Origin: a virus
Lineage: Duplodnaviria > Heunggongvirae > Uroviricota > Caudoviricetes
IMG/VR virus record: IMGVR_UViG_2563366861_000002
Reading direction: 5' to 3' (one strand)
Length of the DNA: 49,107 bases
The notes beneath the pieces were generated by a model, which was not told the origin of the DNA, ran no database searches, and was given only the letters and a program-made list of their open reading frames with translations. A program made the translations under genes and the position numbers. Positions 39,916 to 49,107 of the stretch are shown here, piece after piece. The first letter of the stretch is position 1. Every line of letters starts with the position of its first letter.

Positions 39916-42900
39916 ATGGGTAAAGGAAGCAGTAAGGGGCATACCCCGCGCGAAGCGAGGGACAACCTGAAGTCCACGCAGCTGCTGAGTGTGCTCGATG
40001 CCATCAGCGAAGGGCCGGTTGAAGGTCCGGTGGACGGATTAAAAAGCGTGCTGCTGAACAGTACGCCGGTGCTGGACAGTGAGGGGAATACCAATATATC
40101 CGGTGTCACGGTGGTGTTCCGGGCAGGTGAGCAGGAGCAGACACCGCCGGAGGGATTTGAATCCTCCGGCTCCGAGACGGTGCTGGGTACGGAAGTGAAA
40201 TATGACACGCCGATCACCCGGACCATCACGTCGGCAAACATCGACCGTCTGCGCTTTACCTTCGGTGTGCAGGCACTGGTGGAAACCACCTCAAAGGGGG
40301 ACAGGAATCCGTCGGAAGTCCGCCTGCTGGTTCAGATCCAGCGTAACGGTGGCTGGGTGACGGAAAAAGACATCACCATTAAGGGCAAAACCACCTCGCA
40401 GTATCTGGCCTCGGTGGTGGTGGATAACCTGCCGCCGCGCCCGTTTAATATCCGGATGCGCAGAATGACGCCGGACAGCACCACAGACCAGCTGCAGAAC
40501 AAAACGCTCTGGTCGTCATACACCGAAATCATCGATGTGAAACAGTGCTACCCGAACACGGCACTGGTCGGCGTGCAGGTGGACTCGGAACAGTTCGGCA
40601 GCCAGCAGGTGAGCCGTAATTATCATCTTCGCGGGCGTATTCTGCAGGTGCCGTCGAACTATAACCCGCAGACGCGGCAATACAGCGGTATCTGGGACGG
40701 AACGTTTAAACCGGCATACAGCAACAACATGGCCTGGTGTCTGTGGGATATGCTGACCCATCCACGCTACGGCATGGGGAAACGTCTTGGTGCGGCGGAT
40801 GTGGACAAATGGGCGCTGTATGTCATCGGCCAGTACTGCGACCAGTCAGTGCCGGATGGCTTTGGCGGCACGGAGCCGCGCATTACCTGTAATGCGTACC
40901 TGACCACACAGCGCAAGGCGTGGGATGTGCTCAGTGATTTCTGCTCGGCGATGCGCTGTATGCCGGTATGGAACGGGCAGACGCTGACGTTCGTGCAGGA
41001 CCGACCATCAGATAAGGTGTGGACCTATAACCGCAGTAATGTGGTGATGCCGGATGATGGCGCGCCGTTCCGCTACAGCTTCAGCGCCCTGAAGGACCGC
41101 CATAATGCCGTTGAGGTGAACTGGATTGACCCGAACAACGGCTGGGAGACGGCGACAGAGCTTGTGGAGGATACGCAGGCCATTGCCCGTTACGGTCGTC
41201 ACGTCACGAAGATGGATGCCTTTGGCTGTACCAACCGGGGGCAGGCGCACCGTGCCGGGCTGTGGCTGATTAAAACGGAACTGCTGGAAACGCAGACCGT
41301 GGACTTCAGCGTGGGTGCAGAAGGGCTTCGCCATGTACCGGGCGATGTCATTGAAATCTGTGATGATGACTATGCCGGTATCAGCACCGGCGGGCGCGTG
41401 CTGGCGGTGAACAGCCAGACCCGGACGCTGACGCTCGACCGTGAAATCACGCTGCCATCCTCCGGTACCACGCTGATAAGCCTGGTTGACGGAAGTGGTA
41501 ATCCGGTCAGCGTGGAGGTTCAGTCCGTCACCGACGGACTTAAGGTGAAAGTAAACCGGGTTCCTGACGGCGTTGCAGAATACAGTGTGTGGGGGCTGAA
41601 GTTGCCGACGTTGCGTCAGCGCCTGTTCCGCTGTGTGAGTATCCGTGAGAACGATGACGGCACGTATGCCATCACTGCCGTGCAGCATGTACCGGAAAAA
41701 GAGGCCATCGTGGATAACGGGGCGCACTTTGACGGCGACCAGAGCGGCACGGTGAATGGTGTCACGCCGCCAGCGGTGCAGCACCTGACCGCAGAAGTCA
41801 CCGCAGACAGCGGGGAATATCAGGTGCTGGCGCGCTGGGACACGCCGAAGGTGGTGAAGGGCGTGAGCTTCCTGCTTCGCCTGACCGTGGCAGCGGACGA
41901 TGGCAGTGAGCGGCTGGTCAGCACGGCCAGGACGACGGAAACTACATACCGCTTCACGCAACTGGCGCTGGGAAATTACAGGCTGACAGTCCGGGCAGTA
42001 AATGCGTGGGGACAGCAGGGCGATCCGGCATCGGTATCGTTCCGGATTGCCGCACCGGCAGCACCGTCGCGGATTGAGCTGACGCCGGGCTATTTTCAGA
42101 TAACCGCCACGCCGCATCTTGCTGTTTATGACCCGACGGTACAGTTTGAGTTCTGGTTCTCGGAAAAGCGGATTACCGATATCAGGCAGGTTGAAACCAC
42201 AGCCCGCTATCTTGGTACGGCGCTGTACTGGATAGCCGCCAGTATCAATATCAAACCGGGCCATGATTATTATTTTTACGTTCGCAGTGTGAACACCGTT
42301 GGCAAATCGGCATTCGTGGAGGCTGTCGGTCGGGCGAGCGATGATGCGGAAGGTTACCTGGATTTTTTCAAAGGAGAAATCGGGAAAACACATCTGGCCC
42401 AGGAGTTGTGGACGCAGATTGATAACGGTCAGCTTGCGCCGGACCTGGCTGAAATCAGGACGTCCATTACGAATGTCAGCAATGAAATCACGCAGACCGT
42501 CAATAAAAAACTGGAAGACCAGAGTGCGGCAATCCAGCAGATACAGAAAGTTCAGGTTGATACAAATAATAACCTGAACAGCATGTGGGCCGTGAAACTG
42601 CAGCAGATGAAGGACGGACGCCTTTATATTGCGGGTATCGGAGCCGGTATTGAGAATACGCCAGCAGGTATGCAGAGTCAGGTGCTTCTGGCTGCTGACC
42701 GGATTGCGATGATTAATCCTGCGAATGGCAACACAAAGCCGATGTTTGTTGGTCAGGGCGATCAGATATTCATGAACGACGTGTTCCTGAAACGCCTGAC
42801 GGCTCCGACCATTACCAGCGGCGGTAATCCTCCGGCATTTTCCCTGACACCGGACGGGCGGCTGACGGCGAAAAATGCCGATATCAGCGGTAACGTGAAT

Positions 42901-43395
42901 GCGAACTCCGGGACGCTCAACAACGTCACGATTAACGAGAACTGTCGGGTTCTGGGAAAATTGTCCGCCAACCAGATTGAAGGCGATCTCGTTAAAACAG
43001 TGGGCAAAGCTTTCCCCCGGGACTCCCGTGCACCGGAACGGTGGCCATCAGGGACCATCACCGTCAGGGTTTATGACGATCAGCCGTTTGACCGGCAGAT
43101 TGTTATTCCGGCGGTGGCATTCAGCGGCGCTAAACATGAGCGGGAGAATAACGATATTTATTCGTCATGCCGCCTGATAGTACGGAAAAACGGTGCTGAA
43201 ATTTATAACCGTACCGCGCTGGATAATACGCTGATTTACAGTGGTGTTATTGATATGCCAGCTGGTCGCGGCCACATGACGCTGGAGTTTTCGGTGTCAG
43301 CATGGCTGGTGAATAACTGGTATCCCACAGCAAGTATCAGCGATTTGCTGGTTGTGGTGATGAAGAAAGCCACCGCAGGCATCAGTATCAGCTGA
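39916..43395 (+). CDS. J: central tail fiber / host specificity protein J
   Basis: 1159 aa; size, position and fibronectin-III-like middle region as lambda gpJ. Confidence 0.9.
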
Positions 43396-43462: not shown

Positions 43463-44062
43463 ATGCGTAAAGTTTGTGCAGTCATTTTGTCCGCAGCCAT
43501 CTGTCTGTCCGTATCCGGTGCGCCTGCATGGGCGTCTGAACATCAGTCCACACTGAGCGCAGGGTATCTTCATGCCCGTACGAACGCTCCCGGCAGCGAT
43601 AATCTGAACGGGATTAACGTGAAATACCGTTATGAGTTTACGGACGCGCTGGGGCTGATTACGTCCTTCAGTTATGCCAATGCTGAGGATGAGCAAAAAA
43701 CGCACTACAGCGATACCCGCTGGCATGAAGATTCCGTGCGTAACCGCTGGTTCAGCGTGATGGCGGGGCCGTCTGTACGCGTGAATGAATGGTTCAGCGC
43801 GTATTCGATGGCGGGTGTGGCTTACAGCCGTGTGTCGACTTTCTCCGGGGATTATCTCCGCGTAACTGACAACAAGGGGAAAACGCACGATGTGCTGACC
43901 GGAAGTGATGACGGTCGCCACAGCAACACGTCTCTGGCGTGGGGGGCTGGCGTGCAGTTTAACCCGACCGAATCCGTGACCATTGACCTTGCTTATGAAG
44001 GTTCCGGTAGTGGCGACTGGCGAACGGATGCATTTATTGTTGGTATCGGATACCGTTTCTGA
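43463..44062 (+). CDS. lom: Ail/Lom-family outer-membrane beta-barrel protein
   Basis: 199 aa with signal peptide and C-terminal GYRF; same position as lambda lom. Confidence 0.85.
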   Translation: MRKVCAVILSAAICLSVSGAPAWASEHQSTLSAGYLHARTNAPGSDNLNGINVKYRYEFTDALGLITSFSYANAEDEQKTHYSDTRWHEDSVRNRWFSVMAGPSVRVNEWFSAYSMAGVAYSRVSTFSGDYLRVTDNKGKTHDVLTGSDDGRHSNTSLAWGAGVQFNPTESVTIDLAYEGSGSGDWRTDAFIVGIGYRF

Positions 44063-44213: not shown

Positions 44214-47189
44214 ATGACAGTAAAAATTTCTGGCGTGCTTAAAGATGGCACAGGAAAACCAGTACAGAACTGCACCATTGTGCTGAAGGCCAGACGAACC
44301 AGCAGCACGGTGGTGGTGAACACGGTGGCCTCTGAAAATCCGGATGAAGCCGGACGTTACAGCATGGATGTTGAGCATGGTCAGTACAGCGTCACCCTGC
44401 TGGTTGAAGGTTTTCCGCCTTCACATGCCGGGACCATTACCGTCTATGAAGGTTCCAGACCAGGTACGCTGAATGATTTTCTCGGTGCCATGACGGAGGA
44501 TGATGTCCGACCGGAGGCACTGCGCCGCTTTGAGCAGATGGTGGAAGAGGTGTCACGTAACGCCTCCGCGGTTGCACAGAATACGGCAGCCGCGAAAAAA
44601 TCAGCCAGCGATGCCAGTGCATCAGCCAGCGAGGCGGCAACTCATGCAACCGATGCTGCAGCCTCAGCACGTGCCGCCAGCACGTCAGCCGGACAGGCCG
44701 CGTCGTCGGCTCAGTCAGCGTCTTCCAGCGCAGGAACGGCATCGACAAAGGCCCGTGAAGCAGCAAAAAGTGCTGCTGCTGCAGAGTCATCAAAAAGCGC
44801 GGCAGTTACCAGCGCCAGTGCCGCGAAAACGTCAGAAACGAATGCCGCAGCGTCACAACAATCAGCAGCCACTTCTGCATCCACCGCGACCACGAAAGCG
44901 TCAGAAGCAGCCACTTCAGCACGGGATGCGTCGGCTTCAAAAGAGGCGGCAAAATCATCAGAAACGAACGCAGCCTCGAGCGCCAGCAGCGCAGCTTCCT
45001 CGGCAACGGCGGCAGCAAATTCTGCGAAGGCGGCAAAAACGTCCGAGACGAACGCCAGGTCTTCTGAAACGGCAGCGGGACAGAGCGCCTCAGCTGCGGC
45101 AGACTCAAAAACAGCGGCTGCATTATCTGCCAGTGCCGCGTCAACAAGTGCCGGGCAGGCCTCAGCCAGTGCCACCGCCGCCGGAAAATCGGCAGAAAGT
45201 GCTGCATCGTCTGCTTCAACAGCCACAACGAAGGCTGGCGAAGCCGCTGTACAGGCCAGCGCAGCAGCGAGGTCTGCTTCCGCAGCGAAGACATCCGAGA
45301 CGAACGCGAAAGCGTCGGAAACCAGCGCAGAATCCTCAAAAACGGCTGCCGCATCGTCCGCCAGTTCGGCGGCGTCATCGGCATCATCTGCGTCTGCTTC
45401 AAAAGATGAGGCGACCAGACAGGCGTCAGCAGCAAAGGGCAGCGCCACGACGGCATCCACGAAGGCGACAGAGGCAGCTGGCAGTGCGACGGCGGCAGCT
45501 CAGAGCAAAAGTACGGCGGAATCCGCGGCAACGCGCGCTGAGACAGCGGCAAAACGGGCAGAGGATATTGCATCCGCCGTGGCGCTTGAGGATGCGAGCA
45601 CGACGAAAAAGGGGATAGTTCAGCTCAGCAGTGCGACTAACAGCACTTCCGAGTCACTGGCGGCAACGCCAAAAGCCGTTAAGGCCGCGTATGAGCTGGC
45701 TAACGGGAAATACACCGCACAGGATGCAACGACAGCACAGAAAGGGATAGTTCAGCTTAGCAACGCGACCAACAGCACATCTGAAATGCTGGCGGCAACG
45801 CCAAAGTCGGTAAAGGCAGCCTATGACCTTGCTAACGGGAAATATACTGCTCAGGACGCTACGACAGCACAAAAAGGAATTGTCCAGCTCAGTAGTGCAA
45901 CCAACAGCGCATCTGAAACGCTTGCCGCGACACCGAAAGCAGTGAAAGCAGCTAATGATAATGCGAATGGTCGGGTACCTTCTGCCCGTAAGGTGAATGG
46001 TAAGGCGCTTTCAGCGGATATAACACTGACGCCGAAAGATATTGGTACGCTTAACTCAACAACAATGTCATTCAGCGGTGGTGCTGGTTGGTTCAAATTA
46101 GCAACGGTAACCATGCCACAGGCGAGTTCTGTTGTTTCAATTACGTTGATTGGTGGTGCGGGATTTAACGTGGGGTCACCTCAACAGGCAGGTATATCTG
46201 AACTTGTTTTGCGTGCAGGTAATGGTAATCCGAAGGGGATTACTGGTGCTTTATGGCAGCGCACATCGACAGGGTTTACAAATTTTGCCTGGGTCAATAC
46301 ATCTGGTGATACTTACGATATTTACGTTGCAATCGGAAATTATGCGACTGGTGTAAATATTCAATGGGATTATACCAGTAATGCCAGCGTGACGATTCAT
46401 ACGTCACCAGCATATTCTGCTAATAAGCCGGAAGGGTTAACGGACGGTACAGTTTATTCACTCTATACGCCATCAGAGCAGTTTTATCCGCCTGGCGCAC
46501 CAATCCCGTGGCCATCAGATACCGTTCCGTCTGGCTATGCCCTGATGCAGGGGCAGACTTTTGACAAATCTGCATACCCGAAACTTGCAGCCGCTTATCC
46601 GTCAGGCGTGATCCCTGATATGCGTGGCTGGACGATTAAGGGCAAACCCGCCAGTGGTCGTGCCGTATTGTCTCAGGAACAGGACGGCATTAAATCGCAC
46701 ACCCACAGCGCCAGCGCATCCAGTACGGATTTGGGGACGAAAAACACATCGTCGTTTGATTACGGAACCAAATCCACGAATAACACCGGGGCGCATACGC
46801 ACAGTCTGAGTGGCTCTACGGGGTCTGCCGGTGATCATACTCATGGTAATGGTATTCGTTGGCCAGGAGGCGGCGGTTCTGCGTTAGCATTTTATGATGG
46901 CGGTGGGTTCACTTATGTCCAGGATTCACAGTATCAAGTAAGCCCGGGGACTTCTTCCCGTAGATCGTATTATCAACGTATTCAGACACAGTCAGCAGGT
47001 GCTCATACCCACTCGCTGTCTGGTACTGCAGCAAGTTCTGGCGCACATGCACATACTGTAGGTATTGGTGCGCATACGCACTCCGTTGCGATTGGTTCAC
47101 ATGGACACACCATCACCGTTAACGCTGCTGGTAACGCGGAAAACACCGTCAAAAACATCGCATTTAACTATATTGTGAGGCTTGCATAA
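44214..47189 (+). CDS. stf: side tail fiber protein Stf
   Basis: 991 aa; N-terminus near-identical to lambda Stf ([20 protein letters not shown]); Ala/Ser-rich low-complexity region, three ~42-aa tandem fiber repeats, C-terminal His-rich receptor-binding region. Confidence 0.9.
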
Positions 47190-47773
47190 TGGCATTCAGA
47201 ATGAGTGAACAAGCACGGACCATAAAAATTTATAATCTGCTGGCCGGAACTAATGAATTTATTGGTGAAGGTGACGCATATATTCCGCCTCATACAGGTC
47301 TGCCAGCAAACAGTACCGATATTGCACCACCAGATATTCCTGCTGGCTTTGTGGCTGTTTTCAACAGTGATGAGGCATCGTGGCATCTCGTTGAAGACCA
47401 TCGGGGTAAAACGGTTTATGACGTAGCGTCAGGGGACGAGTTATTTATTTCTGAACTCGGTCCGTTACCGGAAAATGTTACCTGGTTATCGCCGGAAGGG
47501 GAGTTTCAGAAGTGGAACGGCACAGCCTGGGTGAAGGATACGGAAGCAGAAAAAATGTTCCGGATCCGGGAGGCGGAAGAAACAAAAAACAACCTGATGC
47601 AGGTAGCCAGTGAGCATATTGCGCCGCTTCAGGATGCTGCAGATCTGGAAATTGCAACGGAGGAAGAAACCTCATTGCTGGAAGCCTGGAAAAAGTATCG
47701 GGTGTTGCTGAACCGTGTTGATACATCAACTGCACCTGATATTGAGTGGCCTACGAACCCTGTCAGGGAGTAA
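47189..47773 (+). CDS. tfa: tail fiber assembly protein Tfa
   Basis: 194 aa; [17 protein letters not shown]... matches lambda Tfa; start overlaps stf stop. Confidence 0.85.
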
Positions 47774-47827
47774 TCATTGGGATTATGCCGCAGCACGTCT
47801 TAAGCAAGAACGTGCTGCGGTTGGATG

Positions 47828-48496
47828 CTATTTTTTCCCTGAAGCGGAAAACATTACTACAGTACCTTGAACCTTGGTTTTAACATTCTCGAAATGCTCT
47901 GAGAGTATATGTGTTAAGCCTTCTTCGGAATCTTTTGTGTTTGAAAAGATGCCTTTCTGATTGTAAATGCGCATCAGTTTTTGACCGAAGCTATTGTGCA
48001 CAACTCCATCGCCAAGAATTGTGGCTCCGTATAGAGTTCCATCGTCAGTTAAGGCCTGCGCCGCATTGCGTATTACACAGCTTTTTGTAGATATATTTCC
48101 AGGCAGGCAGTGAAGAAGGTAAAACATGGAAATGGAATCAAATTGACCATGTAACGCCGCGGGATAAGGTTCAAAAACATCATGGCTAATTTTATGTTTA
48201 ATTTTTGATTCCCCAGCCCTTGTAGATGCCGCGTTCAGGCTAGCTTCGTTCAAATCCATTAAAGATATCAGACTACTCTCAGGTACGTGAGTAAGGTAAA
48301 ACCCAGTTCCAACACCAATATCCAGATGGTTGTTACCTACATGTTCCAGAAAGTGTGGAAGAAGGTGTTCCTTTGTAGGACATCCCCATGCAAGCCGATT
48401 TGATACTCCCAAAACCCACCAGTCATAAAGCTTTAGGGTAAGTGGTGTGTAAATTTTAGCCCCATCATCTGTGTTTTTTTTCATTGATTTCACCAT
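47828..48496 (-). CDS. class I SAM-dependent methyltransferase (moron in tail-fiber region)
   Basis: 222-aa ORF with motif I LDIGVGTGFY; AT-rich; opposite strand to tail genes; flanked by duplicated tfa 3' ends. Confidence 0.7.
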   Translation of the reverse strand: MVKSMKKNTDDGAKIYTPLTLKLYDWWVLGVSNRLAWGCPTKEHLLPHFLEHVGNNHLDIGVGTGFYLTHVPESSLISLMDLNEASLNAASTRAGESKIKHKISHDVFEPYPAALHGQFDSISMFYLLHCLPGNISTKSCVIRNAAQALTDDGTLYGATILGDGVVHNSFGQKLMRIYNQKGIFSNTKDSEEGLTHILSEHFENVKTKVQGTVVMFSASGKK

Positions 48497-48552
48497 GTTA
48501 TAGTTTTATTTGTGAATTAAATCAATTATGGCGATGAATTACAAGGGGTTAA

Positions 48553-48822
48553 ATGCTGCCGCAGCATAGCGATATTGAAATAGCCTGGTATGCTTCGATA
48601 CAGCAGGAGCCGAATGGCTGGAAGACCGTCACCACACAGTTCTACATCCAGGAATTCAGTGAGTATATTGCGCCACTGCAGGATGCTGTAGATCTGGAAA
48701 TCGCAACGGAGGAAGAAAGATCGTTGCTGGAGGCATGGAATAAATATCGGGTATTGTTGAATCGTGTTGATACATCAACTGCACCTGATATTGAGTGGCC
48801 TGCAAATCCTGTCAGGGAGTAA
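48553..48822 (+). pseudogene. tfa-like fragment (duplicated 3' portion of tail fiber assembly gene)
   Basis: 89-aa ORF whose C-terminal ~50 aa repeat the tfa C-terminus; DNA about 205 bp similar to 47617-47822 including downstream hairpin. Confidence 0.5.
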
Positions 48823-48936
48823 TCATTGGGATTATGCCGCAGACACGTCGTATGCAGGAACGTGCTGCGGTTAGTTTGTGAGCTTTCGATAGTGGTTGTT
48901 ATTTTTGCCCTTATTTGTTCCGGAGGCCATGGTTCA

Positions 48937-49107
48937 ATGGTCCGTCTGCCCCCTGTGGTGATGTCAGCAAAATCAGCCACTGCGCGAACCACAATAGCCC
49001 GGGAAGATGCTGAAGATCACCAGGTAAAGCTATCAGCGCAGAAACTGGAAGAACTGCTCGCATCAATGGTTAAGGATGAGGTTGATCGCAATGATGGGAT
49101 TTATTGA
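48937..49107 (+). CDS. hypothetical small protein
   Basis: Internal ATG (MVRLPP...) with GGAGG upstream; 56 aa; no homology recognised. Confidence 0.3.
   Translation: MVRLPPVVMSAKSATARTTIAREDAEDHQVKLSAQKLEELLASMVKDEVDRNDGIY

Follow-up and report, generated by a model that had tools for sequence, protein, structure and literature searches.

The closest described relative of the locus analysed here is the tfaD-ybcY-tfaX cassette annotated in the cryptic prophage DLP12 of Escherichia coli K-12, close to appY and ompT. There each of the three genes is a pseudogene, ybcY through a frameshift and the loss of its start, tfaD through the loss of its N-terminus and tfaX through an internal stop. The ybcY and tfaX literature that we searched held promoter, SELEX and context mentions and no functional study, and the literature on effector loci, morons and PhiR phages gave us nothing useful. 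It is textbook knowledge that lambdoid phages take up morons next to tail-fibre genes and are mosaic at conserved tfa ends. Morons of these phages, reportedly defined by Hendrix and co-workers, are extra genes between conserved phage modules, with atypical base composition and promoter-like signals, and are absent from collinear relatives. The position between tfa and the attachment site is a cargo slot of variable content in the lambda b region and in the effector loci of enterohaemorrhagic E. coli (EHEC) prophages, the latter said to have been described downstream of tail-fibre genes by Tobe and co-workers in 2006.

We analysed a stretch of 49,107 nucleotides (the window; IMG/VR record IMGVR_UViG_2563366861_000002), whose right end carries this same arrangement (Table 1). 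Since the order is that annotated as tfaD-ybcY-tfaX in DLP12, the arrangement is already known and cannot count as new. E. coli 120899 matches the region at 100% identity, and there, as in K-12 MG1655p, PGAP annotates tfa, a minus-strand methyltransferase (MTase) gene and a partial tfa in that order; in phage PhiR26_1 the MTase gene is annotated as YbcY. DLP12 matches the window over 1300 nt (window 47500-48799) at 96.9% identity and shares its gene order, orientation, chimeric junction, left junction at the hairpin and promoter hexamers. The homology ends inside the second tfa fragment, which in K-12 is cut at window 48777-48799 and followed by AT-rich DNA and appY; K-12 therefore has no second hairpin, and its repeat is only ~120 bp long. 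Whereas DLP12 is a cryptic prophage at argU, the window cassette lies in a prophage at ompW with a full lambda-like gene set. We consider it about 80% probable that this region is the right-end cargo of a lambdoid prophage carrying the DLP12-type ybcY-tfaX cassette, that the cassette originated by a single capture of the MTase gene and a later fusion of a small phage gene, here called X, to tfa, and that tfa 3′ ends have served as its homology arms.

Table 1 Features at the right end of the window, in window coordinates
Feature	Position	Strand	Basis and remarks
stf, side tail fibre gene, 991 aa	44214..47189	+	ORF list; upstream of the locus
tfa, full-length tail fibre assembly gene, 194 aa	47189..47773	+	Pfam Caudo_TAP, E 1.3e-44, profile positions 1-130 of 131
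Direct repeat copy 1	47608..47822	+	Last ~165 bp of tfa (conserved C-terminal domain), stop codon and hairpin
Conserved GC-rich hairpin, CCGCAGCACGT...ACGTGCTGCGG	47787..47821 (quoted sequence at 47788-47820)	+	Directly after the tfa stop, 7 nt from the MTase stop
Class I SAM-dependent MTase, intact ybcY homologue, 218 aa from the family-conserved start at 48484	47828..48484	-	Pfam, AF2 model
Divergent intergenic region with promoter-like hexamers	48497..48552	.	Sequence reading, promoter scan
Chimeric 89-aa ORF, tfaX homologue	48553..48822	+	Caudo_TAP, phrog_3893
Direct repeat copy 2, including a hairpin with one bulged A	48657..48872	+	Repeat search, alignment, RNA fold
Remnant of another tail-fibre-associated gene	48873..49107	+	phrog_1141 (tail fiber protein), E 6.9e-10; phrog_7703; PGAP DUF4376 pseudogene

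In collinear relatives stf is annotated as side tail fibre or as prophage tail fibre N-terminal domain protein, and tfa is 92% identical at the DNA level to lambda orf-194. On the right, the remnant extends beyond the window end, toward the right end of the prophage in ompW; a Pfam search of the part inside the window did not detect DUF4376. A preliminary description had placed direct repeats of about 205 bp at the 3′ end of tfa from 47617 and at 48665-48872. A repeat search found two matching segments offset by a 1-nt insertion (47597-47793 against 48646-48842, 197 nt, 89%; 47794-47822 against 48844-48872, 29 nt, 90%), and pairwise alignment set the limits at 47608/48657 (CAGTGAG...) on the left and 47822/48872 (...GCTGCGGTT) on the right. 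The copies are thus 215 and 216 nt long and 88.9% identical, far beyond chance; the repeats themselves are as described, with the proposed coordinates a few bases short on the left, and the low similarity on alignment that would have spoken against them was not seen. Each consists of the tfa 3′ end and the conserved hairpin, whose recurrence in the second copy (48837-48870) was also correctly anticipated.

The hairpin has a centroid energy of -24.4 kcal/mol and z = -4.0 over the whole 76-nt stretch, and its inner stem covaries between alleles (CACGT/ACGTG in the window, AACGTT/AACGTT in lambda). It is likely the transcript-end structure for both convergent genes, tfa and the MTase gene, though not a canonical intrinsic terminator: a terminator scan of both strands did not call it as one because the T-run lies 10 nt away, and on the minus strand no U-run follows it. 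The 45-aa ORF spanning the hairpin had no match in Pfam. The Rfam family RF02111 (IS009) matches at 47532-47730 in tfa with 223.8 bits and at 48576-48779 in the chimeric ORF with 112.5 bits, slightly under the gathering threshold of 117 bits; since both matches fall within tfa sequence that codes for protein, what the family captures may be conserved coding DNA and not a small RNA.

The second tfa end forms the 3′ part of a chimeric tfa-like fragment, as proposed in the preliminary description. Caudo_TAP matches only residues 31-86 of the 89-aa ORF (profile positions 75-130 of 131, E 6e-25), so that profile positions 1-74, the N-terminal fibre-binding domain, are missing. Codons ~36-89 (48657-48822) correspond to tfa codons ~141-194, and codons 1 to ~35 (48553-48656) come from an unrelated phage gene family with a 79-aa product, matched by phrog_3893 at residues 3-37; a full-length 79-aa relative occurs in Klebsiella phage Kp4882-3, and Pfam gave no match either for this X protein or for its neighbour in the Klebsiella phage. 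With the N-terminal part of Caudo_TAP absent and residues 1 to ~35 unrelated, the ORF is a fragment and not a full Tfa. One junction (...QEFSE[Y/H]IAPLQ...) is common to all copies of the chimera, which probably is a non-functional remnant. One could ask whether this ORF might be a working mini-Tfa, a free C-terminal domain that helps or hinders tail-fibre assembly, for instance that of superinfecting phages. The preserved junction, a frame open in ~80% of copies and coverage of the conserved C-terminal Tfa domain would suit such a role. We regard it as quite improbable: truncation or frameshift affects ~20% of copies, compared with 6% of those of the MTase, the C-terminal ends vary, with the DLP12-type domain cut at 48777, the fibre-binding domain is absent, and PGAP labels the ORF a partial pseudogene. 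Moreover, the -10 element proposed for K-12 tfaX (PMC3946193), read against the window sequence, overlaps the ATG.

The cassette behaves as a unit whose surroundings change. The repeat spacing is 1049 bp in 37 of the 38 two-copy loci, and 46 of 88 left-hand copies are bare tfa 3′ remnants behind other tail-fibre genes. Of 76 left ends of homology, 38 fall at 47640-47680, and of 49 assessable right ends, 31 fall at 48770-48800, both ranges being inside the tfa 3′ ends; the survey is biased, its loci having been gathered by exact match to a 32-mer that covers the tfa stop and hairpin. This clustering of breakpoints agrees with the preliminary proposal of recombination at conserved tfa 3′ ends. 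Presence of the unit is itself polymorphic. The prophage of MS15047, also at ompW, lacks the 1049-bp unit: its one tfa runs straight into the copy-2 hairpin, and beyond this lies the downstream remnant known from the window. The 3′ end of that tfa is a mosaic. Of 22 sites that distinguish the copies, the first 15 include 10 of copy-1 type and the last 7 are all of copy-2 type; the prophage has private differences in addition. The site might have been empty ancestrally and need not have arisen by deletion. Phage Ayreon has kept the last 12 MTase codons and lost window 47865 to ~48527. The MTase gene is absent from these two and from lambda, all collinear relatives, and its GC content is 0.40-0.44 against 0.49-0.55 in stf and tfa, in keeping with the moron-like cargo that had been suggested; it would differ from a typical moron in sharing the tfa hairpin in place of a clean terminator of its own. 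The slot holds other cargo elsewhere, as also suggested: in EDL933, a Mn-catalase gene with yciEFG-like genes between tfa and the MTase gene, an IS66 element, a hydrolase gene and ompT, and in lambda, ea47. In the EHEC effector loci the cargo consists of secreted effectors, whereas that of the window is a metabolic-type MTase.

We propose that lambdoid phages of E. coli took up a host-type, stand-alone class I SAM MTase gene on a single occasion; the gene would have been placed, with a sigma-70-like promoter of its own, just past the tfa hairpin on the opposite strand. Later, the divergent neighbour X may have been cut at about codon 35 and its 5′ part fused by a non-homologous event to the 3′ end of a different tfa allele, which would have brought in the second tfa 3′ end and hairpin. 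Homologous recombination within tfa 3′ ends could then bring the 1049-bp unit to lie behind other tail-fibre genes, exchange the sequence on its right or delete it. The C-terminal domain of Tfa is described as conserved in PMC9608196, which cites North et al. 2019; because tail-fibre modules that are otherwise unrelated share this conserved domain, the two copies would act as portable homology arms.

Two direct copies of ~215 bp, 1049 bp apart, could also have come from tandem duplication of the tfa 3′ end within the prophage and later insertion of the MTase gene between the copies, and the preliminary description had indeed called the ends duplicated. That word does not hold. The copies are 89% identical here and 74-91% identical across the 38 two-copy loci, never near-identical; the second is read in frame with 5′ sequence from an unrelated gene family, which points to non-homologous fusion; and another prophage has, at its single tfa end, sequence identical to the 3′ part and flank of this second copy. 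On the divergence in the 38 loci and the mosaic sites of MS15047 we rejected duplication in place, which we hold to be very unlikely. The opposite orientation of the block between the copies might instead recall an invertible tail-fibre segment of the Gin/Cin/Pin type, now decayed, with alternative tfa genes at its flanks. Copies of tfa surround invertible segments in other E. coli prophages and phages (e14, Rac, Mu and P1). This idea, too, was rejected, and we give it almost no credence: the repeats are direct and not inverted, a search allowing up to 3 mismatches returned no gix/pix-like crossover site, from tfa to the prophage end at ompW there is neither an ORF nor an annotation for a serine invertase, and the inverted block is an MTase gene, not tail-fibre sequence.

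The AT-rich class I SAM-dependent MTase that the preliminary description had read on the opposite strand between the copies is borne out by a Methyltransf_12 match of 37.5 bits (Pfam cut-off 30), with Methyltransf_23, _25 and _11 also above their cut-offs, and the ORF, which in its longest form spans 47828-48496, is uninterrupted, so that the disruption raised there as grounds for doubt is not found. In the alignment, the upstream extension of this longest form is present only in the Citrobacter sequence P0004, and the other 35 homologues start at M5. The protein belongs to PHROG 2132, and 2296 homologues of it were collected. Motif I (DIGVGTG) and the acidic motifs II and III are conserved, and D59, G61, G63, G65, D81 and D106 are invariant in 37 homologues. 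The AF2 model (pLDDT 90.5) is a single domain of 218 aa with a Rossmann-like methyltransferase fold, whose matches form a flat list of small-molecule and lipid methyltransferases at 10-21% identity, which does not discriminate between substrates; the whole-length matches include a bacterial phosphatidylethanolamine N-methyltransferase. Sequence searches agree in kind, with weak PDB matches to JHAMT and UbiG and, in NCBIfam, only far sub-threshold matches (CpaM, RquA, PmtA). The Rossmann fold, N-terminal helical lid, motif I (GxGxG) and acidic motifs are common to UbiE/Coq5-like and related enzymes (JHAMT, bacterial PmtA, phosphoethanolamine methyltransferase, NodS), although identity to these is only 10-21% and the NCBIfam matches fall far below cut-offs. 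From its sequence and model, the protein looks like a small-molecule or lipid methyltransferase and not a DNA methyltransferase, and its action on such a substrate would benefit the host rather than the virion.

Orphan DNA methyltransferases are frequent in phages, and the enzyme might accordingly be thought to modify phage DNA or RNA, for anti-restriction or epigenetic ends, and so to serve the phage and not the host. The sole PADLOC match is in that direction, a weak one to mad2 (E 0.009, 12.9 bits). We judge this highly improbable: the translation contains neither a catalytic (D/N/S)PP(Y/F/W) nor a PCQ motif, the single domain leaves no target-recognition domain, the best sequence and fold matches are the small-molecule and lipid enzymes, the more distant relatives are stand-alone chromosomal genes, and the gene is retained in prophage remnants without phage functions.

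Direct reading of the divergent intergenic region gives minus-strand hexamers TTGATT (48525-48520) and TATAAC (48502-48497) with a 17-nt spacer, and an alternative candidate, TTAACC-16-CATAAT (48552-48525), matches at 9 of 12 positions in a scan whose total is no higher than in shuffled sequence. The K-12 ybcY promoter has identical hexamers and spacing, and the ybcY/tfaX spacer carries an H-NS mark there (PMC3946193), so the gene may be silenced. We infer that the MTase would be expressed in the lysogen from this putative promoter of its own.

The MTase gene occurs, annotated as such, in 3831 of 5426 complete E. coli genomes (~70-71%) and in only 15 of 50,697 phage records, where identity is never below 98.6%. 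It is intact in 76 of 81 copies (6% disrupted), and pN/pS is ~0.2 for the most diverged alleles, which suggests that it is retained and probably functional. In Nissle 1917 the prophage has shrunk to an integrase remnant, a fragment of tfa, the MTase gene, which is intact, and ompT. Three neighbourhoods were inspected for each class of relatives. At 56-65% identity the genes stand alone on chromosomes, in varied contexts outside phages; at 68-90% they have prophage-type cargo genes around them, dinI, sodC and sopA among these. None of these six neighbourhoods shares a conserved operon partner, and with none conserved in the three chromosomal ones the context, too, points to no particular substrate. 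The distribution is consistent with an enzyme of host-type origin captured by E. coli lambdoid phages; with the closer relatives lying among prophage-type cargo, that the gene passed from chromosome to phage is our interpretation.

As a discovery the locus carries little weight, being annotated in K-12 and in thousands of genomes. It does draw attention to a very common accessory enzyme of E. coli (~71% of complete genomes), mostly intact, that adjoins ompT in the DLP12 remnant. Because the gene is intact in a reduced prophage and the fold matches include phosphatidylethanolamine N-methyltransferase, one may speculate, as an outside chance, that selection preserves it in most E. coli as a domesticated prophage gene, whose product would methylate a lipid of the envelope or a small metabolite linked to stress and so change host physiology or phage susceptibility, or that the free Tfa C-terminal domain of the chimera disturbs the assembly of tail fibres in competing phages. 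More generally, the locus illustrates how a conserved chaperone domain can provide homology arms for the movement of cargo between prophages.

The window is a lambdoid prophage in which an inverted methyltransferase gene lies beyond tfa. The preliminary description placed direct repeats of the tfa 3′ end on either side of this gene, the second within a chimeric tfa-like fragment, and alignment, Pfam and GC content agree. It is correct: Caudo_TAP (the Pfam family of Tfa) covers only part of the 89-aa chimeric ORF, and the repeats and the intact methyltransferase were confirmed. This arrangement had been annotated before and is not new, given its occurrence in the DLP12 prophage of K-12, in phage annotations and in E. 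coli genomes, 3831 of 5426 complete ones carrying the methyltransferase gene (every one at ≥95% identity, with at most four copies per genome). DLP12 matches at 96.9% identity, in the order tfa pseudogene (tfaD), frameshifted methyltransferase (ybcY), partial tfa (tfaX), appY and ompT; the gene is named "YbcY" in phage PhiR26_1 and class I SAM-dependent methyltransferase in phages 2G7b and ev243. In the window the ybcY-tfaX cassette is at its most complete, with an intact methyltransferase, a full-length tfa and a hairpin still present at the second tfa end.

The E. coli 120899 chromosome is 100% identical to the cassette region, and there PGAP calls tfa and a class I SAM-dependent methyltransferase, together with two pseudogenes: a partial tail fibre assembly gene and a DUF4376 gene. 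The right end of the prophage lies ~300-800 bp past the window, adjoining a truncated ompW that is followed in 120899 by yciE and the trp operon. A series of tail-fibre module fragments occupies the ompW-side end. Within stf, three tandem 132-bp units (45589-45984; units 2 and 3 share 77% and 62% identity with unit 1) code for a repeated motif of ~44 aa.

Coordinates of the cassette and neighbouring features in the window
Feature	Position	Strand	Remarks
Integrase ORF	1-1080	minus	from ORF list
J	39916-43395		right of integrase ORF
lom	43463-44062		right of J
stf	44214-47189		right of lom
tfa	47189-47773		right of stf
Direct repeats	47597-47793 / 48646-48842		repeat search, 89%
Direct repeats	47794-47822 / 48844-48872		repeat search, 90%
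Repeat limits	47608-47822 / 48657-48872		pairwise alignment
First hairpin	47787-47821		
Second hairpin	48837-48870		
Methyltransferase	47828-48496	minus	open, 222 codons, between the repeats
Promoter-like hexamers	48525-48497	minus	TTGATT-17-TATAAC, upstream of methyltransferase
Chimeric ORF	48553-48822		
Third tail-fibre-related remnant	48873-49107; locus L004 7373-7912		3′ of second hairpin; phrog_1141 match; PGAP: DUF4376 pseudogene with internal stop

The repeat copies are 88.9% identical over 216/217 nt. The first hairpin is stable (centroid −24.4 kcal/mol; z = −4.0 for the containing 76-nt stretch), and the second carries one inserted A in pairwise alignment, which bulges and makes it less stable. 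The hairpin is conserved and its inner stem covaries, from CACGT/ACGTG in the window to AACGTT/AACGTT in lambda; a terminator scan did not call it as a canonical terminator. A weak Rfam match to CssrB, a Shigella small RNA (47757-47819, overlapping the tfa stop and hairpin; 32.6 bits vs a gathering score of 76), is probably not meaningful. A 45-aa GTG ORF on the plus strand (47746-47883), which runs across the tfa stop and hairpin into the methyltransferase 3′ end, is labelled "hypothetical protein" in 120899 and "nucleocapsid protein" in K-12 by PGAP, gave no match in a Pfam search and is probably a spurious call. RF02111 (IS009, an Rfam small-RNA gene entry) matches the coding 3′ part of tfa (47532-47730, 223.8 bits), the chimeric fragment (48576-48779, 112.5 bits, slightly below the gathering score of 117) and, in K-12, the interior of the tfaD pseudogene (locus L005, 5033-5231); it may describe conserved tfa coding DNA instead of a structured RNA.

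In the chimeric ORF, the Caudo_TAP match is restricted to residues 31-86 (profile positions 75-130 of 131). Residues 1 to ~35 are not Tfa and match phrog_3893; they are 51% identical to the N-terminal part of a 79-aa ORF of Klebsiella phage Kp4882-3 and 75% identical to a truncated ORF in phage Ayreon. The Kp4882-3 protein (locus L007, 4004-4243) is a full-length member of the family of the donor gene, here called X, and a Pfam search found no domain in it. Because all copies found (120 IMG/VR loci) have the one junction QEFSE[Y/H]IAPLQ, their sequences point to a single non-homologous fusion that would have joined gene X to tfa codons ~141-194. About 80% of copies have an open chimera, the others being truncated or frameshifted, and its C-terminal ends differ (WPANPVRE, WPTSPAE, WPEEPDTM); in the type found in DLP12, PhiR26, ev243 and 2G7b, homology ends at window position 48777 (about 48799 in K-12), beyond which the DNA is AT-rich and unrelated.

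The preliminary description also proposed cargo exchange by recombination at tfa ends, and its interpretation is partly supported: both this and the status of the insert as a moron hold, but its word "duplicated" is misleading. In any one locus the two tfa ends share 74-91% identity and near-identity was never seen; they therefore derive from different tfa alleles. In-place duplication is rejected on this divergence and on a prophage in MS15047, which at the same ompW site has a single tfa with the copy-2 hairpin immediately behind it and then the downstream remnant seen in the window. At the 22 copy-distinguishing sites, the MS15047 sequence resembles copy 1 at 10 of the first 15 and copy 2 at each of the last 7, the mosaic pattern expected from a crossover between the repeats, although MS15047 could instead represent an ancestral empty site. 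An invertible segment is ruled out, as the repeats are direct and no gix-like site with ≤3 mismatches occurs.

Use of the tfa ends as recombination arms is supported by the surveyed sequences. In 37 of 38 loci the copies lie 1049 bp apart. Of the left-hand copies preceding the methyltransferase (n = 88), 41 lie in full-length tfa and 46 are bare 3′ remnants that follow other tail-fibre genes, as in 2G7b and ev243. The left-hand break in homology to the window falls at 47640-47680 in 38/76 loci and the right-hand one at 48770-48800 in 31/49 assessable loci; this survey is biased, its loci having been gathered by exact match to a 32-mer across the tfa stop and hairpin. Conservation of the tfa 3′ end has a known reason: it encodes the conserved C-terminal Tfa domain described in PMC9608196, which cites North et al. 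2019. Ayreon (locus L006, 3786-4100) retains a tfa 3′ remnant, the hairpin, the last 12 methyltransferase codons and the truncated X ORF; a clean ~663-bp deletion (window 47865 to ~48527) removes the methyltransferase, and homology resumes at the X start. Ayreon also has another type of side tail fibre.

The ybcY-tfaX cassette behaves as a moron in a cargo slot downstream of the tail-fibre genes. In E. coli O157:H7 EDL933, the stretch from tfa to the methyltransferase holds four further cargo genes, encoding a Mn catalase, two ferritin-like proteins and a general stress protein, and an IS66 element follows the chimera. Besides the Mn-catalase gene, these stress-protection genes (locus L141, 2331-4544) are paralogues of yciE, yciF and yciG, whose chromosomal versions adjoin ompW. 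The prophage of the window is attached at ompW, and the EDL933 genes may have been picked up there.

The methyltransferase ORF has a GC content of 0.40-0.44 (about 0.5 in adjacent genes) and exceeds the Pfam cut-offs for Methyltransf_12, _23, _25 and _11. Across 37 aligned homologues, motif I (DIGVGTG), D81 and H105-D106 do not vary. The annotated 222-aa start (ATG 48496) is probably wrong and M5 (ATG 48484) the true one, because 35 of the 36 homologues compared begin at M5, the upstream extension being common only to a Citrobacter sequence (P0004), and because the reported K-12 −10 hexamer ends directly beside the first ATG. Text from PMC3946193 lists the K-12 ybcY promoter with identical hexamers and marks H-NS in the ybcY/tfaX spacer.

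Near-full copies are intact in 76 of 81 cases at the surveyed loci, pN/pS is about 0.2 for the most diverged alleles, and all that remains of DLP12 in Nissle 1917 is an integrase remnant, a tfa fragment, the intact methyltransferase and ompT. The gene occurs in only 15 of 50,697 phage records, each time at ≥98.6% identity. Relatives at 68-90% identity sit amid cargo genes of prophage type, among them dinI, sodC and sopA, and those at 56-65% are stand-alone chromosomal genes in varied contexts (Salmonella, Enterobacter, Erwinia). From the absence of a DNA-methyltransferase motif, a PADLOC search with no meaningful match and an NCBIfam search with nothing close to a cut-off, we infer a small-molecule or lipid methyltransferase. 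This very widespread E. coli accessory enzyme is probably host-beneficial cargo rather than a virion or DNA-modification function.
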